A DNA stretch of 64,000 bases from Acidimicrobiia bacterium (GTDB lineage Bacteria; Actinomycetota; Acidimicrobiia; IMCC26256; DASPTH01): NCBI GenBank assembly GCA_036502765.1, contig DASXXX010000031.1, positions 56,696 to 120,695 of the forward strand. The letters are read 5' to 3'. Below the pieces are notes generated by a model. That model made no database searches and was not told the origin of the DNA. It saw only the letters and a program-made list of their open reading frames with translations. Position 1 is the stretch's first letter, and the number at the start of each line of letters is the position of its first letter. The position numbers and the translations under genes were made by a program. Below are positions 17,379 through 47,658 of the stretch, piece after piece.

Positions 17379-17393
17379 GCATCCGGTGGCCGT

Positions 17394-19392: not shown

Positions 19393-19406
19393 CCGGCGAC
19401 GGGGAC

Positions 19407-20591: not shown

Positions 20592-20602
20592 GGCCGTGGT
20601 CC

Positions 20603-21361
20603 TCATGGTGTGGGCTGACCTGCGAGCACCTCGGTGGATTGGTCGCCGAGGTGCATGATCACCACCTCGCCGTTCGGAGCGTCGTCGGACACGAGTGGGA
20701 GCGCCGCCTCGGCGCACTCCTCGATCGTGGGGAGGCCGCGTGCGACGAGGTCATCGAGCATCCGGGGCGTCACCTGCGAGCGGACGAGGTCGGTGAGCGC
20801 CACGGGCGCGAACGCATTGACGCAGATCCCCGAACGCGCCAGTTCGAGGGCGAGGGTGAGCGAGAACGCGACCAGGGCACCCTTCGAGGCGGAGTACGCG
20901 GAAAAGCCTGCGCTGCCACGCACACCAGCTTCGGACGTGACGTTGAGGATCCGACCCCACCCGTTTCGTTGCATGTCGGGGACGGTCTCTCGCAACACAT
21001 TGCGGGGCGCCAACAGGTTCACGGCGAGGAGACGATTCCATTCTTCGTCGGAGCTGTCGAGGAAGAAGTTCCGGGTGGACGTCCCGGCGTTGTTCACGAC
21101 GATGTCGATCGGTCCCAGCCGGGCCCGGGTGTGCGCACAGAGAGCAGCAACCGCGTGGGGATCCGAGATCTCGCCGGCAACGCCGATGGCTCCCGAGATG
21201 TCTCGGGCTGCCGCGTCGGCGGCACGTCCGTCGCGTCCGTGGACGGCGACTCGTGCACCCTGCGCCGCGAGGCACCGCGCGATCGCGTTCCCGATCCCAC
21301 GCGTCGATCCGGTCACGAGAGCGACCCGTCCTCCGATGCTGCCCAGGCCCGACGCGCTCAT
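20603..21361 (-). CDS. Short-chain dehydrogenase/reductase (SDR)
   Basis: VALVTGSTRGIGNAIA and YSASKGAL. ATG 21361 forms an ATGA overlap with the upstream ATPase stop. Confidence 0.85.
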   Translation of the reverse strand: MSASGLGSIGGRVALVTGSTRGIGNAIARCLAAQGARVAVHGRDGRAADAAARDISGAIGVAGEISDPHAVAALCAHTRARLGPIDIVVNNAGTSTRNFFLDSSDEEWNRLLAVNLLAPRNVLRETVPDMQRNGWGRILNVTSEAGVRGSAGFSAYSASKGALVAFSLTLALELARSGICVNAFAPVALTDLVRSQVTPRMLDDLVARGLPTIEECAEAALPLVSDDAPNGEVVIMHLGDQSTEVLAGQPTP

Positions 21362-22206: not shown

Positions 22207-22300
22207 GCAGACCCCCCACGTGAAAGCGACTCGGCGTCGGCCAGCGAGCGCCGCGATCGATCGTAGCCGCTGAACGTGCAGAGCGACAGATGATGTCCTA

Positions 22301-24556
22301 TTGTTCCGTCCGATGGGGCCGACACCTTTTCTCTCCGGCCTGTCCGTGCTCGAGTTCGGCGACGGCGTCGCGGGGGCGGTCGCCGCCGGCACGCTCGCAC
22401 TGCTCGGGGCCGACGTCACCAAGGCGATCGAAGATCCACCCCGGCTCGCCCGCCACCAGCCGATGTTGGATCACGTCGGCGTTCCGCCCTGGCCCTTGCT
22501 GCCGTCGGTGCTCGACCGTTCGAAGCGACTCGTCGCGGCCGACGATCCGCGAGTGCACAACCTCTCGATCACCGCCGACATCGTCATCGACGACCGTGTC
22601 GACGGCATCGACGACGCCGAGACGTATCTCCGGCGAGTCGGCGAACGCAACCTGTCGGTCTGGCTCACGATCTCGCCGTTCGGCCTGAGTGGTCCTCGAA
22701 CTGCACGTCGAGGAGGTGAGCTGATCGCGCAGGCGGCGGGTGGTCTCCTTTCGACCATCGAACCCGTCGGTGGCGGGCGCCCGACGTCGCCGCCAGGGTT
22801 CGTCGCATTGCGCGCCGTCGGCCATGTTGCCGCGTTGGCGGCACTCCACGGGATCGACCGGTTCCGTGGCGACGGCTGCCCAACGCACGTCGATGTGTCT
22901 GCACAAGAAGCGGTGGTCTTCACGGGCGCGCTCCCGGAGTGCGCACACCTCTTGTTCCGGTGTCCCGGGCGCGCCGGGAGCGGACGGTACGTCGCGCCGT
23001 CGGGTCTCTTCCCATGTCGCGACGGACTGGTGCGCATTGCCGCCATCGAGGACCACCAGTGGAAGGGCATGGTCGCATGCCTCGGCACTCCCACCTGGAC
23101 CGAGGGCCTCGAGACCCGCCCGGCCCGAGCCGAGCACGCCGCGATGATCACCGAGCGGGTTGGCGAATGGAGCGCGCAGCAACGCAAGGCCGAATGCGCG
23201 GATCTCCTCCAGCGCAACGGTGTGCCGTCGACGCCGGTGAACGGTCCTGACGAACTGCTGACTTCGACGCAGTTCCAGAGCCGCGGGTTCCTGGTGCAAA
23301 CCGACGTCGACGGCGTGCGCGCGACGGTTCCCGGAGCGCCGTGGGTCGTGACGACGGTGGACCCCGCCCGTCGGGTGGGGCCGGCATCGCAGACTCCCGT
23401 GCCGCCACGGCTGGCGGGCCTCCGTGTGACCGAGCTCACGCACGTGCTCGCCGGTCCCATCGTCGGCTCCCTGCTCGGCGCGATGGGCGCCGACGTCGTT
23501 CGCCTCGAAGACGAACGTCGCCTCGACATCTACCGTCGAACCGGACCCTTCGCCGAAGGAGTCGCCGGCGTCGAACGAGGTGCCTACTTCGCGGCCGCGA
23601 ACTTCTCGAAGCGCAGCGTCGTGGCGGGCGCCGAAGAGATGGACGCCGCCGTCGCGCTCCTCCTGGACCGCACCGACGTCGTCATCGAGAACATCGGCCG
23701 TTCCCGCCTCGAGCGACTCGGTGTGCTCCCGGAGAAGGTGACGCACGAACACGACGCCCTGTTCCTGCACGTCTCCGGGTTCGGTACCGATGGACCCCTC
23801 GCCGAGTACCGCGTCTACGCGAACAACGTGCAGGCGTACGGAGGTCTCGCTCACCTCACCCGGGATGCACAGGGCGAGCCGGCACACCTGGCGACGGTGC
23901 TGGCCGACCCGCTCTCTTCGGTCGTGGCGGCAACGGCCGTCGCGGCGTGGGCGCTCGGACCTCAACGGGGTACGGGCGTCGACGTCGACCTGTCGATGGC
24001 CGAAGTGGTCGCGAGTCTGCTCGGCGAGTTCGTCGCCGAAGCATCCGCCAGCCGGAGTGTCACGGTGCCACTCGGAAACACGCTCGCACCGTTCTCGCCC
24101 CACGGTGTCTTCGCGTCTCGTGACGAGCGTTGGTTCGCGGTGGCGGTGCAGGCGGACGACGAATGGCGTCGCCTCGTCGACGCCCTCGACCACCCACCCG
24201 AGTTGACCGAGTCCAGATGGAATCGCGAGCCCGAACGATGGCGCGAACGCGACGTGATCGAGCGATGTCTGGCCGACGTGATCGCTCGATGGGACGCCGA
24301 CGCGCTCGACGAGGTGCTTGCCGCGGCCGAGGTGCGCGCGGCGGCGGTGCATCGTGCAGTCGACCTCCTCGCCGACGACCATCTCCGCGACCGGGGCTTC
24401 TTCCCGGCGTTCGCCCATCCCGACCCGGATCTGCACGATGCCCGCCTCGTCGGCATGCCGTGGCGCCTGGTGGGGGAGGGTCCTCTTGCGCAGGGCGCGC
24501 CTCCGCATCTTGGCGACGCCAACGCCGACTTCGACGTGAACGGGATGAGACGGTGA
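22301..24556 (+). CDS. Tandem two-domain family III (CaiB/BaiF) CoA-transferase fusion
   Basis: 751-aa ORF with two complete N-terminal signatures. The first is LSGLSVLEFGDGVAGAVAAGTLALLGADV (aa ~11). The second is LAGLRVTELTHVLAGPIVGSLLGAMGADVVRLE (aa ~371, nt ~23410). An alternative start exists at ATG 22313. Confidence 0.85.
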   Translation: MFRPMGPTPFLSGLSVLEFGDGVAGAVAAGTLALLGADVTKAIEDPPRLARHQPMLDHVGVPPWPLLPSVLDRSKRLVAADDPRVHNLSITADIVIDDRVDGIDDAETYLRRVGERNLSVWLTISPFGLSGPRTARRGGELIAQAAGGLLSTIEPVGGGRPTSPPGFVALRAVGHVAALAALHGIDRFRGDGCPTHVDVSAQEAVVFTGALPECAHLLFRCPGRAGSGRYVAPSGLFPCRDGLVRIAAIEDHQWKGMVACLGTPTWTEGLETRPARAEHAAMITERVGEWSAQQRKAECADLLQRNGVPSTPVNGPDELLTSTQFQSRGFLVQTDVDGVRATVPGAPWVVTTVDPARRVGPASQTPVPPRLAGLRVTELTHVLAGPIVGSLLGAMGADVVRLEDERRLDIYRRTGPFAEGVAGVERGAYFAAANFSKRSVVAGAEEMDAAVALLLDRTDVVIENIGRSRLERLGVLPEKVTHEHDALFLHVSGFGTDGPLAEYRVYANNVQAYGGLAHLTRDAQGEPAHLATVLADPLSSVVAATAVAAWALGPQRGTGVDVDLSMAEVVASLLGEFVAEASASRSVTVPLGNTLAPFSPHGVFASRDERWFAVAVQADDEWRRLVDALDHPPELTESRWNREPERWRERDVIERCLADVIARWDADALDEVLAAAEVRAAAVHRAVDLLADDHLRDRGFFPAFAHPDPDLHDARLVGMPWRLVGEGPLAQGAPPHLGDANADFDVNGMRR

Positions 24557-24813
24557 CGGCCACGAGACTTGACGATGTTGCCGCCGAGATGTGGGCCGCA
24601 ACGTGGATCTCGGGACCATGCCCGGTCGAAGGCTTCGGGAATGACGACGGCTACGCCGTGGCGTGGGTCCAGGTGGATGACGGACCGCGACTCCAGGCGC
24701 TCGTCGCCGGCGCGAACGCTCCTGCGCCCGGAACGCGCGGCTGGGTGAACCGCCACCTCGTCGGCGACGAATCCATCGACGTCTTCAGCGCGCGGGTTGG
24801 AACGTCGGAGTGA
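24553..24813 (+). CDS. Short DUF35-like OB-fold protein lacking the zinc-ribbon half
   Basis: 86 aa read from a GTG overlapping the upstream stop (GTGA). The segment GYAVAWVQVDDGPRLQALVAG...GTRGWV resembles the C-terminal OB-fold of DUF35 proteins. There is no CxxC. Its stop overlaps the start of the next thiolase-like gene. Confidence 0.55.
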   Translation: MTATRLDDVAAEMWAATWISGPCPVEGFGNDDGYAVAWVQVDDGPRLQALVAGANAPAPGTRGWVNRHLVGDESIDVFSARVGTSE

Positions 24814-25937
24814 TGTCAGCATGGGTCATCGGTGCCGGGATGCTGCCGTGCGGCAGGCACTCCGACACGCCGCTCCACGAGCTCGGTGCCGAGGCAGCAC
24901 GCCTCGCACTCGACGACGCGGGACTTCCGTACGACCAGGTCGGCGAGGTGTTCACGTCGTCGATGCTCGCACCGCCACAGACCGCTCTCCGGGTTGCCCA
25001 CTCGCTCGGTCGCACGGGAGTCCCCGTGACCGCGATCGAGAGTGCCTCGGCCGGAGGACTGGTGGCATTGCGTCATGCTGCGTGGGCGGTGTGGTCGGGC
25101 CGCTGCGAGACCGCGTTGGCCGTCGGGTACGAGAAGTCCACGATGCTCGAGCCGGGTGGTGTCGTCCCCAAGCCTCGAGACGTGTGGGACCTGTTCCCAC
25201 CGCAGCTCAGCTACGCGATCGACGCGACCCGGTTCCTGTACGAACAGGGACAGGGTCCAGAGCTGTTCGCCGCGGTCGCAGCGAAGTCATGGAACTGCGC
25301 GGCGCGCAACGAGCTCGCCGCACGGCGACCCGATCACGAGGTCACGATCGAGGAAGTGCTCGGGGCGAGGATGGTGGCGACGCCGCTCACTCGCATGATG
25401 TGTCACGCCTCCGTCGACGGTGCGGCCGCGGTCGTCGTGTCACGGGATGCCGTGCCGGAGGCAGTCGAACTGCTCGCCGTCGAGCAGACCAGCCTCGTGG
25501 AAGATGCGAGTTGGCCTCGCGTCGGACCGACCATCGGTCCGCCTTCGCAGACCGCTCGCACCGCGCGGCGGGCATTCGAGATCGCGGGCATCGCGCCGAG
25601 TGATGTCGGGATCGTCTCGTTGCACGACATGTGCGCCAGCGAGGAAGTGGTGACGCTGGTGGAGCTCGGGGTCTGCGACGCCGATGAGATCGCCGACCTC
25701 GTGTTCAGCGGTGGGCTCTCGGTCAAAGGTCGGTTGCCGACCAACGTCGACGGAGGGTGTCTCGCTCGCGGTCATCCGATGGGTGCGACTGCCTTGGCGC
25801 AGACCGTCGACGTCGTCCGGCAGCTCCGGGGCCGTGCGGCGGCGCGACAGGTCGCCGACGTGCACACCGGTGTCGTGCAGACGGTCGGCGGCGGTGGGTC
25901 CGCGGCGGTCGCGGTGTTGCGCCGCTCGGACGTGTGA
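24810..25937 (+). CDS. Thiolase-superfamily protein (SCP-x/Ltp-like), nucleophile Cys apparently absent
   Basis: 375 aa with a thiolase-like N-terminus WVIGAGMLPCGRH and VPVTAIESASAGGLVALRHA where thiolases carry ..C(A/S)(S/T)G. It is paired with the DUF35-like gene. Confidence 0.8.
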   Translation: MMSAWVIGAGMLPCGRHSDTPLHELGAEAARLALDDAGLPYDQVGEVFTSSMLAPPQTALRVAHSLGRTGVPVTAIESASAGGLVALRHAAWAVWSGRCETALAVGYEKSTMLEPGGVVPKPRDVWDLFPPQLSYAIDATRFLYEQGQGPELFAAVAAKSWNCAARNELAARRPDHEVTIEEVLGARMVATPLTRMMCHASVDGAAAVVVSRDAVPEAVELLAVEQTSLVEDASWPRVGPTIGPPSQTARTARRAFEIAGIAPSDVGIVSLHDMCASEEVVTLVELGVCDADEIADLVFSGGLSVKGRLPTNVDGGCLARGHPMGATALAQTVDVVRQLRGRAAARQVADVHTGVVQTVGGGGSAAVAVLRRSDV

Positions 25938-26710
25938 TCGTGGGATCAGCTGCTCGGGTCACGCTCGTCACCGGGGCGGGATCCGGCATGGGGCGCGCCC
26001 TGTGTGAACGGCTGGCGGCGCGAGGCGAGGCAGTCGTGGCTGTCGACATCGACGGTGCGAAGCTCGCGTGGACCGACGGATGGGCGGCGGTCGTCCCCCA
26101 CACCGCAGACGTCACCCATGAGGATGACAACGACGCGATGGTCGCGTTCGCGGTCGACCAGTTCGGTGGTCTCGACGCCGCCGCGCTGAACGCCGGGATC
26201 GATGTCGTCGGGACGGTCGACCAGCTGCCGATGGAGCGGTTCGATCGCGTGCTCGACGTCAATCTCCGCGGCGTGGTGCTGGGCATCCGATCGGTCATCC
26301 CGGCCCTGCGGGCCCGCGCCGGCGGTTCGATCGTGGTGACGTCGTCGATGGGTGGGTTGGTGGGGCAGGTCGGTCGGTCCGCGTACGGCGTCGCGAAGGC
26401 CGGCCTCGTGAACCTGGTGAAGACCGTTTCGCTCGAAGTCGGCCACGAGCGGATCAGGATCAACGCGGTGTGCCCGGGACCCATCCGCGACACGGACATG
26501 AGCGCGGGGTTCGACGTCCGCCATCCTGACCTGTACCGCGAGTTCGCCAACCGCACTGCACTCAAGCGCTTCGGCAGCGCCGAAGAGGTCGCAGCGGTCA
26601 TGGACTTCTTGCTGTCGCGCGCCGCGTCCTATGTCACCGGAGCCGCGGTCCCCGTCGACGGCGGAACGACTGCGGGTGCGGCATTGGATCAACCGCTGGG
26701 CAACCTCTGA
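25934..26710 (+). CDS. Short-chain dehydrogenase/reductase (SDR)
   Basis: VTLVTGAGSGMGRALC and YGVAKAGL. GTG 25934 overlaps the upstream stop. The 3' end overlaps the convergent ABC fusion gene by 22 bp. Confidence 0.85.
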   Translation: MIVGSAARVTLVTGAGSGMGRALCERLAARGEAVVAVDIDGAKLAWTDGWAAVVPHTADVTHEDDNDAMVAFAVDQFGGLDAAALNAGIDVVGTVDQLPMERFDRVLDVNLRGVVLGIRSVIPALRARAGGSIVVTSSMGGLVGQVGRSAYGVAKAGLVNLVKTVSLEVGHERIRINAVCPGPIRDTDMSAGFDVRHPDLYREFANRTALKRFGSAEEVAAVMDFLLSRAASYVTGAAVPVDGGTTAGAALDQPLGNL

Positions 26711-29801: not shown

Positions 29802-30881
29802 TCAGCGATTCCGGAGCCAGTCCGCCACCGCGTCCCGGTGGCCGCCACGCCCACCGAGCAGCGCGGCAAGGACGGCGGCGCGGCGAAGGAACACGTGCGC
29901 GACGTGCTCCCACGTGTACCCGATGCCCCCGAAGACCTGGATCACGCCCTCCGGCACCGACCTCAAGGAATCCACGGCCCAGAAGGCCGCCAAGGACGTC
30001 AGCGCCGCGGCATCCGCCGCTTCTGACTCCACTGCGACCGCGGCACGCGCGACGAGTGCGCGGCTGACCTCGATGGCCGCCCGCTGGTCCACGAGTCGGT
30101 GCTTGATCGCCTGGAACGAACCGATCGGGCGATCAAACGCCACGCGGTGCTTCGCGTAGTCGACGCCGAGGGCATTGGCGCCGGCCGCAACGCCCGTCAG
30201 CTCGGCGGCCCATCCGAGGGTGAGCCGCTGCATCGTTGCCGCCCATCGGTCGACGGCTTCGTCGCCGAAGGCAATGACCTCGTCGTCGGAGGCCGTCACG
30301 TCATGGAGCTCGAGCGAGACGCTCGGCATCGCGTCGAGCGGGCGGAGCTCGGAGCGCTCGACGCCGATGGACTCGGTGGCGATCTGGAGGAGCGTCGCCG
30401 TGCCGTCTGGTCGCCGGGCGTGCACCAGCATTCGTTCGGCGACGTCGCCGTAGGGCACGAACCCATGTGACCCGGACACCACGACCTTGGCGCCTGCTTC
30501 GAGCGTCGCGGGTGTCGGCGACGGGACGGGGACGATCCCGACGGTTCCTTCCGTCTGGGGTCGTCCGGTGCACCAGTTCCCGACGGCGACGGGCACAAAG
30601 GGGATCGGCGCCGTCGACGCGCCGATGGACTCCGCGATCACGCAGAGGTCCGGCACGGTCCCCCCACCGTCTTCGGCCTCGAGCAGGATGTCGGCCCATC
30701 CGAGTCCGGCAACGGTGTGCCAGAGACCGACAGCCCAGGTCGGCGCCTCCGCGTCGAGCAGGTCGCGCGAGCGGTCCGCGGACCACTCCCGCGCGAGGAC
30801 GTCGTCGGCCATGGTTCGCACCGCGGTGAGATGCTCGGCCGCGTCGGCAAGCGCGAGGAGAGAAGCCGAGTCAGCGGTCAC
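29802..30881 (-). CDS. Acyl-CoA dehydrogenase family protein, beta-like partner subunit
   Basis: 359 aa, shorter and divergent, with an ACAD C-terminal helical-domain-like sequence (FQAIKHRLVD...). Its GTG start overlaps the end of the upstream ACAD by 11 nt. Confidence 0.8.
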   Translation of the reverse strand: MTADSASLLALADAAEHLTAVRTMADDVLAREWSADRSRDLLDAEAPTWAVGLWHTVAGLGWADILLEAEDGGGTVPDLCVIAESIGASTAPIPFVPVAVGNWCTGRPQTEGTVGIVPVPSPTPATLEAGAKVVVSGSHGFVPYGDVAERMLVHARRPDGTATLLQIATESIGVERSELRPLDAMPSVSLELHDVTASDDEVIAFGDEAVDRWAATMQRLTLGWAAELTGVAAGANALGVDYAKHRVAFDRPIGSFQAIKHRLVDQRAAIEVSRALVARAAVAVESEAADAAALTSLAAFWAVDSLRSVPEGVIQVFGGIGYTWEHVAHVFLRRAAVLAALLGGRGGHRDAVADWLRNR

Positions 30882-32115
30882 GGGGAAGTCCGAGGAGCTT
30901 TTCGCCGATCACGTTGCGCTGGATCTCGGAGGTGCCTGCGCCGAGTGTTGCGGCCCGCATCAGCAGGTAGCTCTTGGCGACGTTGCCTCCCTTGGCGGCT
31001 CCGTCGGAACCCCGTTGCAGCGTGCCGCTGACGCCTGCCATCTCCAGCCCGAAGTTGGCCATCGCCTGGTCCACCTCGGACGTCAGCAGCTTCGCGACCG
31101 AGGCTTCGGGTCCCGGAGCCGTGCCGCGAACGCCGGCGGCGGTTGCCTGCGCTGATATCTGGCGCAACGCCTCGACTTGCGCGGCGAATCGCACGAGGTG
31201 GTCGAGCGTCCACGGGTCGTCCATCGGGCAACTCCCGTCGGCTGCCGGGTCGGTTGCCGGCTCGGTTGCCATGGCGAGGAGGATCGCGAGTCGTCGTTCG
31301 ATCCGGTGCGTCCGACTCTGGCCGACGCGTTCGTATCCGAGCGTCGAGTTCGCGACCCGCCATCCCGCATCCACCGGACCGACGACGTTGGCGAGTGGCA
31401 CACGGACGTCGGTGAAGAACACCTCGTTGAACTCGGCGGTTCCGGTGATCTGGCGGATGGGGCGGATCTCGATGCCCGGTGTGCGGAGGTCGACGAGGAG
31501 GAAGCTGATGCCTTCGTGCTTGGGCGCGTCCGGATTCGTGCGGGCGAGGATGTAGATCCAGTCCGCGTACTGCGCCTTCGACGTCCAGATCTTCTGCCCG
31601 TTCACGAGGAAGTGGTCGTCGACGAGCTCCGCGCGGGTGCGCAGCGATGCGAGGTCACTCCCGGCGTCCGGCTCGCTGAACCCCTGGCACCAGACGTCAG
31701 CAGCGTTCAGGATCCGAGGGAGGTAATGCGCACGTTGCGTGTCGTCGCCCCACTGGATGATGGTCGGACCGAGCTGGTTGACGGCGCTGCGGTTGATCGC
31801 ATCCGGTGCGCGGTGGCGAGCAAGCTCCGCATTGAACACCAGCTGTTGCACGACCGTCGCGCCTCTCCCTCCGTGGACGACCGGCCAGCTCACCGCCGCG
31901 AGTCCCGCCGCATGGAGACGCCTCTGCCACTCGCGCAGCAACGCGACACGCTTGGCTTCGGATCGCTCCCGACTCGCGCTGACCAGCTCCGATGTCAGCT
32001 CGGTCTCGAGGAACGCGAGCACCTCGTTCCGAAACTCGCGGTCTTCCGGCGCGAGAGGAACGCCGAAGTCGTCGACGTCGCGACGGGACCCACCGGCGCG
32101 AGATCCGACCGTCAC
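30871..32115 (-). CDS. Acyl-CoA dehydrogenase, alpha-like subunit
   Basis: QGFSEPDAGSDLASLRTRAE, FLVNGQKIWTSKA, LGYERVG and C-terminal GAGTSEIQRNVIGEKLLGLPRD. Confidence 0.9.
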   Translation of the reverse strand: MTVGSRAGGSRRDVDDFGVPLAPEDREFRNEVLAFLETELTSELVSASRERSEAKRVALLREWQRRLHAAGLAAVSWPVVHGGRGATVVQQLVFNAELARHRAPDAINRSAVNQLGPTIIQWGDDTQRAHYLPRILNAADVWCQGFSEPDAGSDLASLRTRAELVDDHFLVNGQKIWTSKAQYADWIYILARTNPDAPKHEGISFLLVDLRTPGIEIRPIRQITGTAEFNEVFFTDVRVPLANVVGPVDAGWRVANSTLGYERVGQSRTHRIERRLAILLAMATEPATDPAADGSCPMDDPWTLDHLVRFAAQVEALRQISAQATAAGVRGTAPGPEASVAKLLTSEVDQAMANFGLEMAGVSGTLQRGSDGAAKGGNVAKSYLLMRAATLGAGTSEIQRNVIGEKLLGLPRDR

Positions 32116-32180
32116 GTTCCTTCCGACGACGTGCTCGTGCTTTCGAGCGCCACGTCGGAAGGGTCGGGAGCCATGGCGGT

Positions 32181-32212
32181 ACTGTATGACATCTCATGTA
32201 CAGAAGTACAGT
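32181..32212. promoter_or_regulatory. 32-bp AT-rich divergent promoter/operator element (copy 2)
   Basis: ACTGTATGACATCTCATGTACAGAAGTACAGT is 27/32 identical to 10867-10898. It contains the 12-mer TATGACATCTCA, which is also present as its reverse complement at 62146-62157. Confidence 0.55.
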
Positions 32213-33211: not shown

Positions 33212-34117
33212 ATGGGGTTACTCACAGGACGCACCGCGGTCGTCACCGGGGCCGGACGTGGGATCGGTGCAGCCGTGGCCGTCGGCCTGGCGGCAGAGGG
33301 GGCATCGGTCCTCGTGTCCGACGCCGGGGTCGGAGTCGACGGGACCGGCTGCGACGCCGGACCGGCCGAAGCAACCGCAGCGCTCATCACTGCAGCAGGC
33401 GGCATCGGAGTCGCCGACGCGACCGACGTCACCGACTTCGACGCGTGCGGTCGCTTGATCGAACGCGCAGTCGGAGAGTTCGGACGGCTCGACATCCTTG
33501 CGAACGTCGCCGGGATCCTGCGCGACAGCATGATCTTCAAGATGCACGAGAGCGACTGGGACGCCGTCATCGACGTGCACCTCAAGGGCACGTTCAACAC
33601 GACGCGACATGCGTCGCAGTGGTGGCGCGAGCACCGGGGCGGTCAGTACCGCTTGATCAACTTCACCTCGTTGTCCGGGTTGCAGGGCGCGCCGAGTCAG
33701 CCGAACTACGCCGCCGCGAAGCTCGGCATCGTCGGCCTCACCTACTCGTGCGCCAACAGCCTCCGCAACTATGGAGTCACTGCCAACGCGGTCGCTCCCG
33801 TCGCGGGGACGCGCATGACCCAGGGCATCGGAAGTGGACGCGCGAGTCTCGACTACTCGGCCGAAAACCCGCGGCTTGCGCCTGAGAACGTCGTACCGCC
33901 GGTGCTCTACCTCGCGTCGGAGCGTTCAGAGTGGCTGAATCGGCGGATCATCTTCGCCGGCAACGGGCGCATCTCCCTGTTCTCGAATCCGGTCGTCGAG
34001 CGGGAGATCGTCTCCGAGTCCGGCACGTGGGACAACGAGACGGCGTTCGCCGAGATGGAGGAGTCGTTCAAGAGCGCGATCCTGTGGCCGAACTTCTTCG
34101 ACAAGCCCCGCGACTGA
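33212..34117 (+). CDS. SDR resembling the dehydrogenase domain of MFE-2/17beta-HSD4-type (3R)-hydroxyacyl-CoA dehydrogenases
   Basis: TAVVTGAGRGIGAAVA, AGILRDSMIFKMHESDWDAVIDVHLKGTFNTTR and YAAAKLGIVGL. Confidence 0.8.
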   Translation: MGLLTGRTAVVTGAGRGIGAAVAVGLAAEGASVLVSDAGVGVDGTGCDAGPAEATAALITAAGGIGVADATDVTDFDACGRLIERAVGEFGRLDILANVAGILRDSMIFKMHESDWDAVIDVHLKGTFNTTRHASQWWREHRGGQYRLINFTSLSGLQGAPSQPNYAAAKLGIVGLTYSCANSLRNYGVTANAVAPVAGTRMTQGIGSGRASLDYSAENPRLAPENVVPPVLYLASERSEWLNRRIIFAGNGRISLFSNPVVEREIVSESGTWDNETAFAEMEESFKSAILWPNFFDKPRD

Positions 34118-34121
34118 CGCC

Positions 34122-35354
34122 ATGGGTGCGTTGGACCACATCCGCATCTGCGACTTCGGCGGACAGCTCGCCGGAGCCGGTGCGACGAAACTGCTCGCCG
34201 CGTTCGGCGCCGAAGTGATCCGCGTCGAGGATCCGACCACGCAGGGACGCTGGGACATGATGCGCGTGGTCGGGCCGTACGTCGACGAACGTCGCGGTGT
34301 CGATCTCGGCGGCGGCTTCAACAACCACAACGTCAACAAACTCGGCGTCACGATCAACCTCCGCGCGCCGGAGGGTCCTGCCCTGCTGGAGAAGCTGCTC
34401 GCGGTGTGCGACGTCGTGACCGAGAACTTCGCCGCCGGAGTCCTCGACCGTCTCGGATTCGGCTACGAGGCACTCGCCGCCATCAAGCCCGACATCATCT
34501 ACGTCTCGAATTGCGGATTTGGCCACACCGGTCCCCACAGATCCTTCAAGACCTGGGGGCCCGTCGTGCAGGCGGTCAGCGGACTGACGTTCAACAACGG
34601 ACTTCCCGACGAGGAACCCGCGGGCTGGGGCTTCTCGTACATGGACCACGGCGCCGCGGGGTTCATGGCGATCGCCATCCTCGCCGCGCTGCATCACCGC
34701 GAGGTCACGGGCGAGGGACAGTGGGTCGACCTCGCGAGCACCACCGCGGGCATCACGATGCAACGCACCGCCGTCCTCGACTGGACCGTCAATGGCCGGC
34801 CGTCGCGACGCCCCGGGCAACCCAACGGCAACCACGCCGACTTCGACGCGATGGCACCTCACAACATCTACGCCGCGCTCGGCGACGACCGATGGGTCGC
34901 GCTCGCTTGTCGTGACGACGACGACTGGCGGGCGCTCTGCGACCTCGTCGACGACGACGATGCGCGTGCCGGCCGATTCTCGGGCCTCGCGGGCCGACTC
35001 GAACACCAGGACCAGCTCGACGAAATCATCGGGCGCTGGGTCGGCGGGCGTGAAGCCGGCGCCGCCGCGAGCGAGCTCGTCGCTGCGGGCGTTCCTGCCA
35101 GCGTCGTGAAGAGCCCTCGCGAACGGATCGACGAAGATCCCGACCTCGACGCCTGGGGGCTCTTCCCGAGCGTCGACCATCCGTTGATGGGTGAGGTGCG
35201 AGTCGAGGGGGTTCCGCTCCACTTCTCGGAGACGGACTGGTCCATCGACAAGGCCGCGCCGCTCCTCGGTGAGGACAACGACCGGATCTTCCGCGAGCTC
35301 CTGGATCTCGACGGCGCCGAGCTCGAACGCCTGCGATCCGAAGGGGTCGTATGA
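34122..35354 (+). CDS. Family III CoA-transferase (type A partner)
   Basis: IRICDFGGQLAGAGATKLLAAFGAEVIRVEDP, and later VSNCGFGHTGP and SYMDHGAAGFMAIAILAAL. Confidence 0.9.
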   Translation: MGALDHIRICDFGGQLAGAGATKLLAAFGAEVIRVEDPTTQGRWDMMRVVGPYVDERRGVDLGGGFNNHNVNKLGVTINLRAPEGPALLEKLLAVCDVVTENFAAGVLDRLGFGYEALAAIKPDIIYVSNCGFGHTGPHRSFKTWGPVVQAVSGLTFNNGLPDEEPAGWGFSYMDHGAAGFMAIAILAALHHREVTGEGQWVDLASTTAGITMQRTAVLDWTVNGRPSRRPGQPNGNHADFDAMAPHNIYAALGDDRWVALACRDDDDWRALCDLVDDDDARAGRFSGLAGRLEHQDQLDEIIGRWVGGREAGAAASELVAAGVPASVVKSPRERIDEDPDLDAWGLFPSVDHPLMGEVRVEGVPLHFSETDWSIDKAAPLLGEDNDRIFRELLDLDGAELERLRSEGVV

Positions 35355-36607
35355 GCTCCCTCTCCGGCCTCCGCGTGCTCCAACTCGTCGACGAGCGCAC
35401 CGTGGACGCCGGACGCATCCTCGCCGAGCTCGGAGCCGAGGTCGTTGTCGTCGAACCCGCCGGTGGTTCGCCGCTTCGCGACGAACCACCGTTCGTCTCC
35501 GATGAGCCAGGGCCTGAACGCAGTCTTCGCTGGTGGGCCGGAGCGGCTGGGGCCCGCAGCATCGAGCTCGACCTCGAGGGCGACGGGCTCGCCCTGTTCG
35601 ACGCGCTCCTCGACGCCAGCGACCTCGTGCTCGAGGGTCGCGGGCACGCGCTCGACGCGGTCGACGCCGGCTGGGACGCCCGCGGACGAACGCGGCCGTC
35701 GCTCATCTGGGTGTCGATCACGCCGTTCGGACGCAACAGCGTCCGTGCCGACGATCCTGCCACCGACCTCACGCTGCTCGCGGGCGGCGGACCCGTCTGG
35801 AACTGTGGCTACGACGACCACTCGATTCCGCCCATGCGCGGCAAAGGCAACCAGGCCTACAACATCGGTGCGATGTATGCGGTCATCGGAGCGCTGACCG
35901 CACTTGCGCACCGAGATCGGACCGGCCGTGGTCAGCTCGTCGACGTCAACATCAACGCCGCGTGCAACGTCACCGCAGAGCACGTCACGTACAACTGGCT
36001 GGTCGTCCAGAGTGTGATGAGCCGCCAGACCGGCCGACATGCCAGCTCCGCACCCACCGCCCCCGTGCAGGTCCGCTGTGCGGACGGCCGTTATGCAACC
36101 ACGGGTGTCCTGCCGAGATCTCCTGCGGAGTTCGGGCGGTTGCGGGCATGGCTCGACGAGCTCGGGCTGCTCGACCGTCTCCCCGAGGCCGTCTTCCTGG
36201 ATCTGGCGGCACGGCGCACGGAGACGGTCGAGATGGTCGATGTCGCCAGTGATCCGGAAGTTGCCGCCATTCTGGCTGCCGCGAGAGACGCAATGACCCT
36301 CATCGCCTCCGAACTCCCCGCCTACGACTTCTACGTCGCCAGTCAGCAGCACGGGTTCCCCTGCGGCGCGGTCGTCTCACCCGACGAAGCGTTCGAGGAT
36401 CCGCAGTTCGCCGCCCGTGGATTCGTTCACGAGGTCGATCATCCGGAACTGGAGCGGCCGTACCGCGCACCGGGCGTGGCGTACGTCTTCAGTGCGAGTC
36501 CGTGCCCGGCACCCGAGCGTGCTCCGCTCCTGGATGAACACCGCGACGAGTTGCTCGGTTCGATGCTCACGCGAGAGGACGAACGTTGGATCCGTCGCCA
36601 GCGATGA
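35351..36607 (+). CDS. Family III CoA-transferase (type B partner)
   Basis: The ATG overlaps the upstream stop (ATGA). LRVLQLVDERTVDAGRILAELGAEVVVVEP, then ITPFG...ATDLTLLAGGG. Clearly divergent from its neighbour. Confidence 0.9.
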   Translation: MSSLSGLRVLQLVDERTVDAGRILAELGAEVVVVEPAGGSPLRDEPPFVSDEPGPERSLRWWAGAAGARSIELDLEGDGLALFDALLDASDLVLEGRGHALDAVDAGWDARGRTRPSLIWVSITPFGRNSVRADDPATDLTLLAGGGPVWNCGYDDHSIPPMRGKGNQAYNIGAMYAVIGALTALAHRDRTGRGQLVDVNINAACNVTAEHVTYNWLVVQSVMSRQTGRHASSAPTAPVQVRCADGRYATTGVLPRSPAEFGRLRAWLDELGLLDRLPEAVFLDLAARRTETVEMVDVASDPEVAAILAAARDAMTLIASELPAYDFYVASQQHGFPCGAVVSPDEAFEDPQFAARGFVHEVDHPELERPYRAPGVAYVFSASPCPAPERAPLLDEHRDELLGSMLTREDERWIRRQR

Positions 36608-37053
36608 ATGCGGACGACAACCGCTTCACGCACGTGGGGTTGTGTGTCTCAGACCTCGACCGTTCGGTCACGTACTACTGCGACGTGCTCGGCTTCACCG
36701 AGGTCGCGCGCCGCTTGAACGTCACCGATGACGGCTCGGCCCGCCTCCTCGGACTCTCGTCGCTGGACGTGGAGCTGGTCTACCTGCAGCGAGATGGAAT
36801 CCGCATCGAACTGCTCTGGTACCGCGTGCCGGGCCACGACGGAGACGGGTCGCCGCGGCAGATGAATCTCCTCGGCCCCACCCACCTCGCGTTCCGCGTC
36901 GGCGACTTCGACGAGCTCTGCCAGAAGATCGAAGCCGCAGGTGGTTCGGTGCTGCCACAGACGATGACGACGTTCGGCTATGGCAACCGCGGCGTCATGA
37001 CCCTCGATCCGGACGGCATCCGCGTCGAGCTCATCGAACGTCCGCAGTCGTGA
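36604..37053 (+). CDS. VOC-family protein (glyoxalase/epimerase/dioxygenase fold)
   Basis: FTHVGLCVSDLDRSVTYYCDVLGF ... GPTHLAFRVGDFDELCQKIEAAGG. ATGA overlap with the upstream stop. Confidence 0.8.
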   Translation: MNADDNRFTHVGLCVSDLDRSVTYYCDVLGFTEVARRLNVTDDGSARLLGLSSLDVELVYLQRDGIRIELLWYRVPGHDGDGSPRQMNLLGPTHLAFRVGDFDELCQKIEAAGGSVLPQTMTTFGYGNRGVMTLDPDGIRVELIERPQS

Positions 37054-37529
37054 CTGCAGGACCGCAGCGCATGACGCTCGACGACGGGTCGTACCGGCCC
37101 GTACCCGCGATCAACGACCGCGACGCTCCGTATTGGACAGGAGGCGAACGCGGTCAACTCATGTTGCAGCGGTGTCGCAGTTGCGACCACGTCATCCACC
37201 CACCGGTCCTGCTGTGCCCCTGGGACCGTTCGCCAGACCTCGAATGGGAGGCGATGAGCGGGCGGGCCACGGTCGAGTCGTTCACCGAGAACCTGCACCC
37301 GTTCCTGCCCGGCTTCCCCGTACCGTCCGTCATCGCCCTCGTCGATGTCGAGGAGGATCCCACCGCGCGCATCCTGACCAACCTGATCGAGGTCGACGCC
37401 GCCGACGTGGCCATCGGCATGGCTGTCGAGGTCGTGTTCCAGCGACTCGAGTCCGACGACGGTCCCGACGTGTACCTCCCGCTGTTCCGGCCGCGTGGTC
37501 CCGTGACCGCCACTCACGGGGGAGACTGA
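37050..37529 (+). CDS. DUF35 OB-fold/zinc-ribbon protein
   Basis: PYWTGGERGQLMLQRCRSCDHVIHPPVLLCPWD is followed by an OB-fold-like ATVESFT...VIALVDVEEDPTARILTNL. GTGA overlap with the upstream stop. Confidence 0.85.
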   Translation: MTAGPQRMTLDDGSYRPVPAINDRDAPYWTGGERGQLMLQRCRSCDHVIHPPVLLCPWDRSPDLEWEAMSGRATVESFTENLHPFLPGFPVPSVIALVDVEEDPTARILTNLIEVDAADVAIGMAVEVVFQRLESDDGPDVYLPLFRPRGPVTATHGGD

Positions 37530-37530
37530 C

Positions 37531-38718
37531 GTGGTCGATCGCTTCGAACCCAAGGTGATCGTCAGCGGCATCGGCCAGTCACAGGTCGCACGCCGCATCG
37601 GTCGCGACCCGCTGCTGCTGACCGCCGATGCCTGCCTCGCCGCCATCGCCGATGCCGGGCTCGAGCCCGGCGCCATCGACGGCCTCAGCACCTACCCCGG
37701 TTCCAGCCAACCCGGCCCCGGCTTCAGCGGAGGCTCGATCCGCGAGGTGCACGACCTCCTCGGCCTGCATCCGAGATGGGTGTCGGGCGGGATCGAGCTC
37801 CCCGGCCAAGCGGGCGCAATCGTCAACGCCATGCTGGCCGTCGCCGGTGGAATCGCCGACCACGTGCTCTGCTGGCGCAGCATCTGGGAGGGCACTGCGC
37901 AAGGCAGCGGCGGCCGCAAAGGGTACGGCGCGGGCGCCAAGCGGGTCGACGGAGTTGCCGCATGGGAGCTGCCGTACGGCGTGACTGCACCGTCACTCGC
38001 GGCGATGCACATCCGCGCTCGGATGGACCGCTACGGCCTGACGCGCGAGCAGTTGGGCGCGGTGCCGATCGTGACGCGCGCGAACGCGGGCCTCAATCCG
38101 AACGCCGTGTACCGCGATCCGTTGACCCTCGAGGACTACCTCAACGCGCGCATGATCTCCTCGCCGTTGTGCCTCTTCGACTGCGACGTCCCGTGCGACG
38201 GCGCAACCGCATTCGTCATCTCGCGCGCGGAGCACGCCACGTCTCTTGACCATGCCGCGATCGGGGTCGAGGGCGTGAGCTGCGCACACGACGATCGATT
38301 CATCTGGCAATACGGCCAGGACATCACCCGCATCAGTTCGCGGTGGGCGAGCGACGTCTGGGAACACACGACGCTCACGCCCGCCGATGTCGACGTCGCA
38401 CAGCTCTATGACGGCTTCAGCATCATCACCCACTGTTGGCTCGAGGACTTCGGGTTCTGCGAAGTCGGCGAAGCCGGAGCGTTCGTCGAGGGCGGCACGC
38501 GGGTGGCCCGCGACGGGCAACTCCCGGTCAACACCGGCGGTGGGCAGTTGTCGGGAGGTCGTCTCCACGGGTTCGGCTTCCTCCACGAGGCATGTCTCCA
38601 GTTGCGCGGTGAGGGAGGCGACCGCCAGGTCGCCGGCGACCCTGAGGTTGCTGCGGTCGGCGTCGGAGCAGGGAACAGTGGCACGACCGCGATGCTCGTC
38701 ACGCGCGGCATTCGATGA
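37531..38718 (+). CDS. Thiolase-superfamily protein (Ltp/SCP-x-like), nucleophile Cys apparently absent
   Basis: 395 aa with N-terminal VIVSGIGQSQVARR. The region where thiolases carry the Cys reads IELPGQAGAIVNAMLAVAGG. Located 1 nt downstream of the DUF35 gene. Confidence 0.85.
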   Translation: MVDRFEPKVIVSGIGQSQVARRIGRDPLLLTADACLAAIADAGLEPGAIDGLSTYPGSSQPGPGFSGGSIREVHDLLGLHPRWVSGGIELPGQAGAIVNAMLAVAGGIADHVLCWRSIWEGTAQGSGGRKGYGAGAKRVDGVAAWELPYGVTAPSLAAMHIRARMDRYGLTREQLGAVPIVTRANAGLNPNAVYRDPLTLEDYLNARMISSPLCLFDCDVPCDGATAFVISRAEHATSLDHAAIGVEGVSCAHDDRFIWQYGQDITRISSRWASDVWEHTTLTPADVDVAQLYDGFSIITHCWLEDFGFCEVGEAGAFVEGGTRVARDGQLPVNTGGGQLSGGRLHGFGFLHEACLQLRGEGGDRQVAGDPEVAAVGVGAGNSGTTAMLVTRGIR

Positions 38719-39548
38719 ACACGAGAGAGGACAAGACCATGAAGGTCGATTTCTCCGGTAGGACCGCGGTGGTCACGGGCGCGGCGAGCGGTCTCGGCCG
38801 ATGTGTCGCCGAGCTCCTCGCGGACAGCGGAGCGCGGGTGATCGGTTTCGACGTCTCGCCCGTCGACGCCGCCGGCATCGACGGTCGCCGGGTCGACATC
38901 GGGGATCCCGACTCGATCGATGACGCGATCCGCAATCTCGACGGGCCCGTCGATGTGCTGTGCAACATCGCGGGTCTGCCCCAGACCAAGCCTGCGCTCG
39001 ACGTACTCCGAGTGAACTTCCTGGGCCTTCGCCATCTCACGGAATCGCTCGCGCCACTCATGGCTGCGGGCGGCTCCGTCACCAGCGTCTCCTCGAACGC
39101 GGGGAACGGTTGGCCGACGCGCCAGCCGCCGCTCGAGGCCGTGCTCGCGACCGGCGACTTCGCCTCTGGTCTCGAGCAACTGGAAGGGGTCGTCGGGGAT
39201 GCCGGCGATTCGTACATCTTCTCGAAGGAACTCGTGCAGCTGTACACCCTGCGTCGCTCGCACACGCTCTTCCGAGAGCGCGGCGTCCGAATGAACAGCG
39301 TGTCGCCGGGGGAGATGGAGACGCCGATGATGGCGGAGTTCCGCAAGGCGACGAGTGACAAGGTGATCGATGCGGTCGCGCAATCCGCGGCACTCGGACG
39401 TGCCGCGTCACCCGAAGAGGTCGCGCCGTCAGTCGTGTTCCTGGCGAGCGACCTTGCCGGCTTCTGTTGCGGGGCCATCTTCGATGTCGACGGTGGTTAC
39501 ACCGCGGCGCAGTTGACCGACCAGATCGATTTCTCGCGGTTCGCATGA
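38715..39548 (+). CDS. Short-chain dehydrogenase/reductase (SDR)
   Basis: TAVVTGAASGLGRCVA and YIFSKELV. ATGA overlap with the upstream stop; an alternative start exists at ATG 38739. Confidence 0.85.
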   Translation: MNTREDKTMKVDFSGRTAVVTGAASGLGRCVAELLADSGARVIGFDVSPVDAAGIDGRRVDIGDPDSIDDAIRNLDGPVDVLCNIAGLPQTKPALDVLRVNFLGLRHLTESLAPLMAAGGSVTSVSSNAGNGWPTRQPPLEAVLATGDFASGLEQLEGVVGDAGDSYIFSKELVQLYTLRRSHTLFRERGVRMNSVSPGEMETPMMAEFRKATSDKVIDAVAQSAALGRAASPEEVAPSVVFLASDLAGFCCGAIFDVDGGYTAAQLTDQIDFSRFA

Positions 39549-46292: not shown

Positions 46293-47236
46293 TCGTCGGC
46301 GTGCCCGAGGACCGCTACGGGCCAGTCGTCGATCGCGACGAGTCGTCCGGTCGACGCCAAGGTGATCACGAGCGCGTGATTCCGAGCATCGAATGCCACG
46401 TTCGTCGTCATCGGATCGTCGAGTGGAAGCGCGGCGAGGAGCTCTCCGGCGGGGGAGAAGACACTGATGCCGCCCGTCCCCAGCGTCGCCACGATGATGC
46501 GACCGTGGTCGTCGACGCAGCAGCCGTCGGCGCCACCGAAGTTCAGTGGACCACCGCTCGGCACGGTGGCGAGCCCTCGCGCGCCCTCGAGCTCGCCGTC
46601 GGCGCCGATGCTGAACTCCCAGACGCGACGGGTGCGCGTCTCCACCACGTAGAGCAGGTCCCCATCCGGTGACAGTGCGACGCCATTGGGCAGCTCGAGG
46701 GGAAACAGCACCTCGCGCAGCCGGAAGTCGGGCGTGCCGTAGAGCACGCCGGTGAGACCGCGTTTGCGGCCATGACCCGCGCCGCTGTCGGTCATCCAGA
46801 ATCCGCCGGTGCGATCGACGCACACGTCGCTGGGCCTTCCGAGCGGAAGCACCGCGCCGTCGCGGGCCACGAACGTGGCGACAGCAGTGTTGACGGTGCC
46901 GTCGGCCTCGACGACCTGGAGCCGCGGCTGCTCCGGAATGTCCGACGGGCCCGACGGGAGCGTCAGTTCCACCGAGCCGGGGAGGTCGAACGGCCAACGC
47001 CGCGCCGCCCAACTCGAGCCGCCGCTCTGGCACACGAGCATCCGACCATCAGGAAGCCGGGCGAGGCCGTTGGGACCGCCGCCCGTCGTCGCGAACGACG
47101 CGCGCGAACCGTCCGGACCGATCCGAGTGATGCAGCCACCAGCCAGCTCGCTGACGAGCACCGAGCCGTCGGCGCACACCACCGGACCCTCAGGGAAGCG
47201 CAGGTCGCGGGCGAGCTCGCGCACCCGCGGGGTCAC
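46289..47236 (-). CDS. SMP-30/gluconolactonase/LRE-like beta-propeller protein (putative lactonase)
   Basis: LRFPEGPVVCADGSVLVSE ... GGGPNGLARLPDGRMLVCQ ... PNGVALSPDGDLLYVVE. GTG 47236 overlaps the upstream stop. Confidence 0.8.
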   Translation of the reverse strand: MTPRVRELARDLRFPEGPVVCADGSVLVSELAGGCITRIGPDGSRASFATTGGGPNGLARLPDGRMLVCQSGGSSWAARRWPFDLPGSVELTLPSGPSDIPEQPRLQVVEADGTVNTAVATFVARDGAVLPLGRPSDVCVDRTGGFWMTDSGAGHGRKRGLTGVLYGTPDFRLREVLFPLELPNGVALSPDGDLLYVVETRTRRVWEFSIGADGELEGARGLATVPSGGPLNFGGADGCCVDDHGRIIVATLGTGGISVFSPAGELLAALPLDDPMTTNVAFDARNHALVITLASTGRLVAIDDWPVAVLGHADE

Positions 47237-47658
47237 GATCCCGACGGTTCCGGTTCGAACAGCAGGAGGTGACGGCCATCTTCGAGCGGCTCCCACGTGG
47301 TCCGGACCCGTTGCCCGACGTGTACGTCGGCGACATCACACCCGACCACGTTGGTCATCAGGCGTGGACCATCGTCGAGATCGACCAACGCCAACGCGTA
47401 GGGCACCATTGCTGTGAGCTCAGGTGCCGGTGCGCGGTGGTGGACGCTCACCGCGTAGACCGTGCCGAGCCCCGACACCTCGTCCCAGTGCAGGTCCTCG
47501 CTGAGGCATCCGGGGCAGAACGCCCGGGGGTACCAGACGAGCGACGCGCAGGCGTCACACCGTTGGAGGACCAGACGCCGTTCTCGAGTGGCATCCCAGA
47601 ACGGCTGGGAGATCTCTGACGGATCCGGCACCGTGCGGGATGCCGCGGCTTCGCTCAT
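47233..47658 (-). CDS. DUF35 OB-fold/zinc-ribbon protein
   Basis: Complete CxxC...CxxC ribbon (LQRCDACASLVWYPRAFCPGC) followed by an OB-fold-like region. ATGA overlap with the upstream stop. Confidence 0.85.
   Translation of the reverse strand: MSEAAASRTVPDPSEISQPFWDATRERRLVLQRCDACASLVWYPRAFCPGCLSEDLHWDEVSGLGTVYAVSVHHRAPAPELTAMVPYALALVDLDDGPRLMTNVVGCDVADVHVGQRVRTTWEPLEDGRHLLLFEPEPSGS

Follow-up and report, generated by a model that had tools for sequence, protein, structure and literature searches.

Three adjacent DUF35-type/thiolase-fold gene pairs, designated D1/T1, D2/T2 and D3/T3, lie in the 64,000-nucleotide stretch of DNA analyzed here (contig DASXXX010000031.1; hereafter the window), which derives from an Acidimicrobiia metagenome-assembled genome (MAG) and thus from an uncultured actinobacterium. 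None of the three thiolase-fold proteins is a canonical thiolase because the acyl-accepting Cys is missing from each. The best joint explanation, to which we assign a probability of roughly 0.6, is that T2/D2 and T3/D3 are retro-aldolases of the Ltp2/Sal branch and that T1/D1 is a separate, Bbs-like enzyme with a Ser/Glu active site; all functional statements about the three pairs are drawn from sequence, predicted structure and gene context. A first-pass annotation of this DNA had proposed that all three pairs could be retro-aldol C-C lyases resembling the steroid side-chain aldolase Ltp2. That interpretation is borne out only in part, since two lineages are represented: T2 and T3 belong to the known Ltp2/Sal type, and T1/D1 is a previously undescribed Ser/Glu variant.

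The open reading frame (ORF) listing and Pfam agree on the three pairs as first annotated, and Thiolase_C_1 is matched in T1, T2 and T3. On the plus strand, D1 (24553..24813, 86 amino acids) precedes T1 (24810..25937, 375 amino acids) and D2 (37050..37529, 159 amino acids) precedes T2 (37531..38718, 395 amino acids). Pair 3 lies on the minus strand in reversed gene order, T3 (47655..48827, 390 amino acids) being followed by D3 (47233..47658, 141 amino acids), an order absent from the first-pass annotation. The translational coupling claimed there, by a 4-nucleotide overlap or a 1-nucleotide gap, was read at all three pairs: D1 and T1 overlap by 4 nucleotides at GTGA (an alternative T1 start gives TGATG), T3 and D3 also overlap by 4 nucleotides, and a 1-nucleotide gap separates D2 from T2. 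We envisage three heteromeric enzymes, each of which would combine an OB-fold/DUF35 subunit with an SCP2-type thiolase-fold subunit.

Active sites of the thiolase-fold proteins

Seven solved chains (Ltp2 6ok1, CtSal 9myr, 4u4e, SCP2 thiolase 6hsj, BbsB 7pxp_C and the archaeal thiolases 6esq_A and 7yvy) were rebuilt from HMMER alignments and aligned with T1, T2 and T3 using MAFFT, and HMMER pairwise alignments were used besides. This comparison bore out the earlier observation that the three proteins read ESASAGG, ELPGQAG and IGGASYE and lack the nucleophile Cys. At the nucleophile column, 7yvy, 6hsj, 7pxp_C and 6esq_A carry Cys, T1 carries Ser80, and T3, Ltp2, CtSal and 4u4e carry Gly; T2 has Leu or Ala depending on the alignment, with no Cys anywhere in the loop. 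None of the three pairs is predicted to be capable of Cys-dependent thiolysis. At the HDxF column, the true thiolases read HDCF or HDAF, T1 HDMC, T2 YDGF, T3 YDSF, Ltp2 YDHF, CtSal YDCY and 4u4e YDSF. At the GHP column, the true thiolases have His, T1 reads GHP, T2 reads GGR followed by LHG, T3 and 4u4e read THP, Ltp2 has Tyr344 and CtSal has Gln352. Both thiolase histidines (HDxF and GHx) are therefore present in T1 (His272 and His322), only the second is present in T3, and neither is present in T2, where Arg occupies the His position. The catalytic Tyr of the aldolase YDxF motif is found in T2 (Tyr293) and T3, and its place in T1 is taken by His272.

In Ltp2, Tyr294 is the base and Tyr344 the acid; the corresponding residues of Sal are Tyr302 and Cys304, the nucleophile position is Gly, and a Sal C304S variant is inactive (PMC12329534). 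The second of these aldolase residues (Ltp2 Tyr344 or Sal Cys304) is absent from all three proteins, the respective positions being Arg344/Gly295 in T2, His337/Ser288 in T3 and His322/Met274 in T1. A neighbor-joining (NJ) tree places T2 and T3 together with the aldolases Ltp2 and Sal. The Ltp2-like retro-aldol reading of the first-pass annotation thus holds for T2 and T3, which share this grouping and the YDxF Tyr, but not for T1, with its His272, its GHP motif and its nesting among Cys-containing thiolases; even for T2 and T3 the catalytic set is only half retained, the Tyr being kept and the second residue missing in both.

That all three pairs are nevertheless Ltp2-type retro-aldol lyases strikes us as improbable. 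Each pair does lack a nucleophilic Cys and includes an OB/DUF35 partner, and an aldehyde dehydrogenase gene is present in the window (11470-13365). Set against this are the T1 features just described, the failure to detect the aldehyde dehydrogenase in the mycobacterial loci compared, and the absence of the steroid-ring genes KstD, KshA and Hsa from the Pfam map of the window.

T2, whose best solved match is Ltp2 (6ok1, 4e-51), shows invariant Y293-D-G-F, Q339 and G-R344-L-H346-G in an alignment of its family and has thousands of homologues, some of them annotated 'dioxygenase'. Its partner D2 is a full-length DUF35 protein (zf-ChsH2 PF12172, 7e-10; OB_ChsH2_C, 7.5e-16), with an OB domain (PF01796) that scores 58 bits, above the cut-off, and a ribbon of canonical spacing, C-x2-C-x10-C-x2-D, that would form a Cys3-Asp metal site. 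The ribbon Asp is also found in the Mycobacterium shimoidei orthologue.

T3 matches 4u4e over its full length (3.5e-110), followed by CtSal (9myr, 1.2e-54) and Ltp2 (3.7e-52), and carries the motifs GGAS, YDSF and THPG. It passes NCBIfam PRK06158, which bears the label 'acetyl-CoA acetyltransferase'. At least 600 relatives occur in metagenomes. Among 80 metagenome loci of this family, all have HPG and 77 retain YD[SA]F, GG[SA][SA] is typical of the nucleophile loop, and a DUF35 gene adjoins the T3 relative in 71, in either order. The other neighbors vary, often including a CoA ligase, an acyl-CoA dehydrogenase, a hydratase and a short-chain dehydrogenase (SDR). D3 is a canonical DUF35 protein with both Pfam domains above their cut-offs (75 bits for the OB domain PF01796) and a C4 ribbon, C-x2-C-x10-C-x2-C.

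T2 and T3 are plausibly retro-aldolases of the Ltp2/Sal branch that have recruited new acid residues. The most likely reaction of T2/D2 and T3/D3 would be retro-aldol cleavage of a beta-hydroxyacyl-CoA, with the YDxF Tyr acting as base and with differing proton donors, putatively Arg344/His346 in T2 and His337 in T3.

In NCBI records, relatives of T1 and T3 are named 'acetyl-CoA acetyltransferase' and T2 orthologues (P0435, P0450 and P0488, among others) are named 'dioxygenase'; on thiolase-fold proteins such names look like propagated annotation errors. A T2 relative on the ibuprofen plasmid pIBU218 was considered as IpfD and cannot be equated with it, since it does not lie beside the ipf dioxygenase genes. 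On this plasmid (locus L143, NZ_CP059320.1 50938-54556), a CaiB/BaiF CoA-transferase, an enoyl-CoA hydratase, an OB-fold protein and a 'lipid-transfer protein' that is 34.6% identical to T2 are encoded in a row, an example of a CoA-transferase/DUF35/thiolase-like module beyond the actinobacteria.

The Ser/Glu clade of T1 and its partner D1

The key residues of T1 lie in the motifs ESASAGG, MMCH, HDMC, DGGC and GHP. An identical protein (P0001, 100%) is annotated from an Acidimicrobiia MAG, and homologues of 60-88% identity are numerous in Mycobacterium, Mycolicibacterium, Mycolicibacter, Williamsia and uncultured actinobacterial MAGs. Across an alignment of 34 sequences and 58 loci, ESASAGG, C198-H199, H272-D-[ML]-C275, C317 and G-H322-[PA] are invariant. 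Since the motif is invariant in these 58 loci and a D1 ORF stands before T1 in 58/58, the T1 features are not chance or assembly noise.

The scan of genome collections used highly specific peptide patterns and yielded the T1 family alone, with no Cys-type neighbors; comparison beyond the family was made by a search of 1.84 billion 50%-identity representatives. In this set, the T1 family is one representative at 484 bits and the next match falls to 238 bits and 41% identity; the family is a discrete clade. In the 144 full-length representatives that scored highest, the nucleophile position is Cys in 118 and Ser in 18. T1 is closest to the Ser-type group, whose members read E-N-A-S-A-[TS]-G and combine this with HDAF and GHP. 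Glu occupies T1 position 278 in 89% of the Ser-type representatives versus 2% of the Cys-type, and Pro131 and Arg172 are likewise enriched in Ser-type sequences. When T2, T3, Ltp2, Sal and 4u4e serve as outgroup in the NJ tree, the Ser/Glu sequences form a single clade nested among Cys-containing thiolases of the SCP2/BbsB type, indicating that the Ser/Glu state is ancient and has been maintained in one clade rather than arising by repeated independent events. T1 would accordingly descend from true BbsB/SCP2-type thiolases through a clade that exchanged the nucleophilic Cys for Ser and acquired Glu278.

The T1 family has also gained Cys275 and Cys317, the latter being restricted to this family, with Leu in its place in other members of the Ser/Glu clade. 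Cys317 aligns with Gln347 of CtSal, which makes a hydrogen-bond contact with the catalytic Cys304 of that enzyme (PMC12329534). Because of this position, T1 probably carries a relocated active-site Cys. The finding that the first-pass annotation had named as speaking against its proposal, a conserved nucleophilic Cys elsewhere in the loop, thus has a partial counterpart in one of the three proteins, T1, in this invariant and family-specific residue.

T1 might alternatively retain covalent catalysis and act as a thiolase or acyltransferase, with either Ser80 (an O-acyl enzyme) or the family-specific Cys317 as nucleophile. DpsC, a Ser-dependent, KAS-III-like enzyme, offers a parallel for the O-acyl enzyme. 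Ser80 is invariant and exactly at the nucleophile position, the activating and oxyanion-hole histidines are both kept, the invariant Cys317 is at the CtSal Gln347 position adjoining the catalytic centre (PMC12329534), and the SDR encoded directly after T1 would supply a 3-oxo substrate. However, position 317 is Leu in the rest of the Ser/Glu clade, which has no active-site Cys at all, and formation of a thioester from an oxyester is unfavorable. We know of no experimental precedent among SCP2-type thiolases, which also counts against covalent catalysis, and overall we consider this alternative doubtful, albeit the strongest of those weighed here. Under the preferred explanation of T1 as a Ser/Glu, Bbs-like enzyme, the Ser/His/Glu site in place of Cys may operate either through an O-acyl intermediate or by non-covalent acid-base cleavage.

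The partner of T1 is equally divergent. D1 consists of an OB fold only, and its score for Pfam OB_ChsH2_C (19.7 bits) falls below the cut-off of 27.1. Of 45 members of the D1 family, 13 weakly match OB_ChsH2_C and no other Pfam family recurs in more than two. A comparison of the D1 family with six full-length DUF35 proteins using hhalign gave a probability of 92% (E 5.8e-7) over the first three OB strands. The AlphaFold2 (AF2) model of D1 is a five-stranded barrel with a predicted local distance difference test (pLDDT) score of 86.5, and its best Foldseek matches are the DUF35 chains of 6ok1, then 6htj, 6esq, 5m3k and 7pxp, although with weak E-values (2e-3) and with ribosomal S12 OB folds mixed in. 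No DUF35 chain was retrieved when PDB sequences were searched with a profile of the D1 family, so the DUF35 homology of D1 is shown by hhalign and the fold search. In addition, one Ser-type relative has a DUF35 partner whose OB half shares 30% identity with D1, and a D1-family ORF lies directly 5' of T1 in all 58 loci, mostly of Mycobacteriaceae (hmmsearch E 1e-20 to 1e-42). The sub-threshold Pfam match, the empty profile search and the weak Foldseek values could suit an unrelated small protein or a spurious ORF with no DUF35 remnant, but the unfailing translational coupling, the recurrent OB_ChsH2_C matches, the hhalign result, the identity to a Ser-type relative's partner and the top structural matches to DUF35 chains of four different thiolase-fold complexes make that very improbable. 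D1 is a DUF35 derivative, homologous to the OB half.

In all, 140 clusters of 68-91 amino acids (one listed member has 149) make up the D1 family, and every one is recorded as 'hypothetical protein' with no Pfam domain. No conserved Cys or zinc ribbon is present across the 45 aligned members, and D1 also lacks the DUF35 N-terminal helix. The first-pass annotation had described the ribbon correctly as complete in D3 (C4), reduced to three Cys plus Asp in D2 and missing from D1, but its view of these as a graded series of ribbon loss does not hold, D1, D2 and D3 being unrelated paralogue lineages rather than one evolutionary series. A real series exists among the partners of T1's relatives. Three Ser-type relatives have translationally coupled full-length partners of 139-157 amino acids, with a C4 ribbon at two loci (L140 and L141) and a full-length but Cys-less ribbon region at the third (L142), and the series ends with the OB fold alone in D1. 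Since these Ser-type relatives have full-length partners, the ribbon was lost only in the T1 family, at a later stage than the replacement of Cys by Ser. To our knowledge, a zinc site is present in all solved DUF35 complexes. DUF35 contacts the thiolase-fold subunit primarily through its OB subdomain and N-terminal helix, and the zinc finger shapes the substrate cleft (PMC12329534). D1 would keep the OB barrel, the main interface part of DUF35, and dispense with the ribbon that shapes this cleft.

Candidate fusions involving OB domains were set aside. A natural CoA-transferase/D1-like OB fusion at locus L039 (2584-4986, an 801-amino-acid frame) is unproven, a sequencing indel being as likely, because, compared with L017, the reading frame changes where the two parts meet, and L055, a sister MAG, contains clear frameshifts. 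P0328, a candidate OB-only/thiolase fusion in the Ser/Glu clade, was rejected as an N-terminally truncated ORF.

Gene neighborhoods and the T1/D1 module

D1 and T1 belong to a tightly coupled module of four genes, a fused BbsEF-like CoA-transferase, D1, T1 and an SDR. The first gene, CoAT2x (22301..24556, +), encodes a fused double family-III CoA-transferase of 751 amino acids, matched twice by CoA_transf_3, and its stop is overlapped by the GTG start of D1 (GTGA). The last, SDR_b (25940..26710, +; Pfam adh_short), for which a GTG start was read from the sequence, begins 2 nucleotides after the T1 stop and is also kept after T1 in two MAG relatives (L005 and L006). The best solved match of CoAT2x is benzylsuccinate CoA-transferase (9fn0_B at 1.8e-34 for the C-terminal half, 9fn0_A at 1.7e-15 for the N-terminal half), and its nearest NCBIfam models are succinate-glutarate and succinyl-CoA:mesaconate CoA-transferases, with scores that do not reach the cut-offs. 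Of the 58 loci, 54 have a fused double CoA_transf_3 gene upstream of D1/T1. Near the module are enoyl-CoA hydratases and a pair of overlapping acyl-CoA dehydrogenase genes (29802..32193, -), the second of which matches only the C-terminal Pfam domain, without N-terminal and middle-domain matches; orthologues of this pair in mycobacterial clusters show 46-70% identity. The acyl-CoA dehydrogenase pair is reminiscent of the ChsE/FadE-type dehydrogenases, which are alpha/beta heteromers that act in steroid side-chain degradation.

The bbs operon encodes BbsEF, BbsG, BbsH, BbsCD and BbsAB (PMC10818641). A bbs-type gene set (BbsEF-like CoA-transferase, BbsA/BbsB-like pair, SDR, acyl-CoA dehydrogenase and hydratase) is present together in the window, a likeness in gene content only. 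The probable role of T1/D1 would be the final C-C cleavage in the breakdown of a dicarboxylate-type substrate that is activated by a CoA-transferase.

In the Mycobacterium avium complex, M. vanbaalenii and M. shimoidei, the T1/D1 module lies inside a conserved cluster that also contains a P450, the acyl-CoA dehydrogenase pair, Amidohydro_2, SRPBCC, a hydratase, an SDR, three further CoA_transf_3 genes and a glyoxalase. In M. shimoidei, this cluster runs on into a Rieske oxygenase, DUF35, T2 and SnoaL, and 12 window genes have orthologues in it at 45-75% identity. Since both modules lie in the M. shimoidei cluster together with window orthologues, T1/D1 and T2/D2 belong to one conserved pathway. 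Directly upstream of D2 in the window, two single CoA_transf_3 genes and a glyoxalase/VOC gene overlap one another (33939..37053, +), and their orthologues adjoin the T1 module in Mycobacterium. The glyoxalase/VOC-fold gene (36586-37053, +) lies between a CoA-transferase gene and D2 in translational coupling, and in Mycobacterium it is kept beside two CoA_transf_3 genes; by analogy with methylmalonyl-CoA epimerase, its product may be an acyl-CoA epimerase. Downstream, an SDR gene (38715..39548, +) overlaps the T2 stop by 4 nucleotides. The M. shimoidei cluster has a Rieske alpha subunit directly before the D2/T2 orthologues, whereas no Rieske oxygenase was found in the 64-kb window.

The co-occurrence of T1 and T2 in one cluster, like the loss of the key nucleophile, would also be expected if the Cys-less proteins were catalytically inactive and served larger complexes as scaffolds or pseudoenzyme subunits. 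Inactive subunits of this kind occur in BbsCD, for example. A scaffolding role of DUF35 proteins is known from archaeal and Phl complexes (PMC12329534, PMC12960953). Nevertheless, the former active-site residues are strictly kept across identity ranges of 35-90% (His272, His322, Ser80 and Glu278 in T1; Tyr293, Arg344 and His346 in T2; Tyr and His in T3) and the relatives Ltp2 and Sal are active without Cys, so that we regard a purely structural role as quite unlikely, more so than a common Ltp2-type function.

A more speculative arrangement, which we think improbable, would join T1, D1 and the fused CoA-transferase in one complex, in which the Ser80/His/Glu278 site together with Cys317 would cleave a 3-oxoacyl-CoA without passing through a thioester-enzyme intermediate, for example by hydrolytic retro-Claisen cleavage to a free acid; the CoA-transferase might then re-activate the acid or recycle the acyl-CoA, and the ribbon-less OB subunit might bridge both enzymes. 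Archaeal DUF35 provides such a bridge between thiolase and HMG-CoA synthase.

Several observations weigh against assigning T2/D2 and T3/D3 to retro-aldolases and T1/D1 to a Ser/Glu, Bbs-like enzyme. T2 and T3 are without the second catalytic residue of either aldolase, and the Ser of T3 corresponds to the inactive Sal C304S state. An SDR and a full beta-oxidation set are common at T3 loci, which fits 3-oxoacyl-CoA as well as 3-hydroxyacyl-CoA substrates. For T1, the placement of Glu278 at the active site is a prediction from alignment, and the co-variation of Ser80 and Glu278 largely reflects common ancestry within one clade and so is not independent evidence of coupling. The NCBIfam BbsB model (NF053628) scores T1 at 127.7 bits against a cut-off of 750 and so does not support BbsB orthology, and the bbs analogy rests on best-match similarity. 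Mycobacteria are aerobes for which we know of no benzylsuccinate-type substrate. Finally, the literature searched holds no biochemistry for the T1, T2 or T3 families.

The Pfam map shows that the pairs are embedded in an acyl-CoA catabolic island with five cytochrome P450s, four AMP-forming CoA ligases and six CoA-transferase domains, in addition to acyl-CoA dehydrogenases, hydratases, SDRs and a LIV-type ABC importer. P450/CoA-ligase regions occupy 14424-20750, 41590-42990 and 60817-62778. The importer is encoded in fused form by an ORF of about 1015 amino acids (26689-29757, -) with two BPD_transp_2 permease regions and an ABC_tran ATPase; a separate ATPase gene lies at 21358-22422, and three Peripla_BP_6 binding-protein genes are dispersed in the island (2919-4223, 13062-14483 and 62750-64000). 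A single ORF at 57311-58609 (+) combines DUF427 (NTP_transf_9) with a two-domain acyl-CoA thioesterase (4HBT_3).

Comparison with known systems

The closest solved system to T2/D2 is the Ltp2-ChsH2(DUF35) steroid C3 side-chain aldolase of Thermomonospora curvata (6OK1). Like T2, Ltp2 has an SCP2-type thiolase fold, no nucleophilic Cys, the YDxF Tyr, His346 and a DUF35 partner. The motif is YDHF in Ltp2 versus YDGF in T2 and YDSF in T3, and the Ltp2 acid Tyr344 is replaced by Arg in T2 and His in T3. The DUF35 of Ltp2 and Sal is the C-terminal domain of a MaoC hydratase (ChsH2/Shy), whereas the partners in the window are free-standing proteins of 86-159 amino acids. Ltp2 functions in a steroid-catabolic context that is not found here, and T1 lacks its Tyr. 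The second-best solved match of T3 is the CtSal-CtShy(DUF35) bile-acid C5 side-chain aldolase of Comamonas testosteroni (9MYR; PMC12329534), in which, as in T3, the nucleophile column holds Gly and the YDxx motif keeps its Tyr. In contrast, the essential Cys304 of CtSal is Ser in T3 and Gly in T2, and its Gln352 is His in T3. The variant Cys3His1 zinc site of CtShy parallels the Cys3Asp site of D2. PDB entry 4U4E, titled 'Thiolase', for which our literature search found no paper, shares the motifs GGSS, YDSF and THPG with T3 and differs in having Tyr instead of Phe just before THPG.

For the T1/D1 module, the matching gene set is that of BbsAB (7PXP) and BbsEF (9FN0), with a two-part family-III CoA-transferase, a small OB/Zn subunit, an SCP2-like thiolase-fold protein, an SDR, an acyl-CoA dehydrogenase and an enoyl-CoA hydratase; BbsB itself matches T1 at 1.5e-33. 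Unlike the pair-1 module, the bbs system has a nucleophilic Cys and HDAF in BbsB, a C4 zinc finger in BbsA and separate BbsE and BbsF proteins, and the organisms here differ from the bbs hosts in being aerobic actinobacteria. No paper on Ser-type thiolases with DUF35 was found in the literature search. The pairs also share a DUF35-bound thiolase fold with the scaffold-type complexes, in which DUF35 joins an SCP2/ACAT-like thiolase with HDxF and GHx to a second enzyme. Those complexes keep the thiolase Cys and a zinc ribbon in every DUF35, unlike the pairs described here, none of which is adjoined by a gene for a KAS-III/HMGS-like partner.

The T1/D1 module is present in many non-tuberculous mycobacteria, including the M. 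avium complex, in which D1 is recorded as a 'hypothetical protein' and T1 is mislabelled as an acetyl-CoA acetyltransferase. The residues identified here provide concrete mutational targets, and these mycobacteria a tractable host, for defining what is predicted from sequence to be a new reaction and catabolic pathway. DUF35-partnered thiolase-fold enzymes are an emerging toolbox for C-C cleavage and formation that includes Ltp2, Sal, BbsAB of the toluene pathway and the Friedel-Crafts acylase PhlABC. Beside these, the window sets three predicted active-site solutions next to one another, Tyr/Arg in T2, Tyr/His in T3 and Ser/His/Glu with a relocated Cys in T1, and D1 suggests that the zinc ribbon of DUF35 can be wholly dispensed with.

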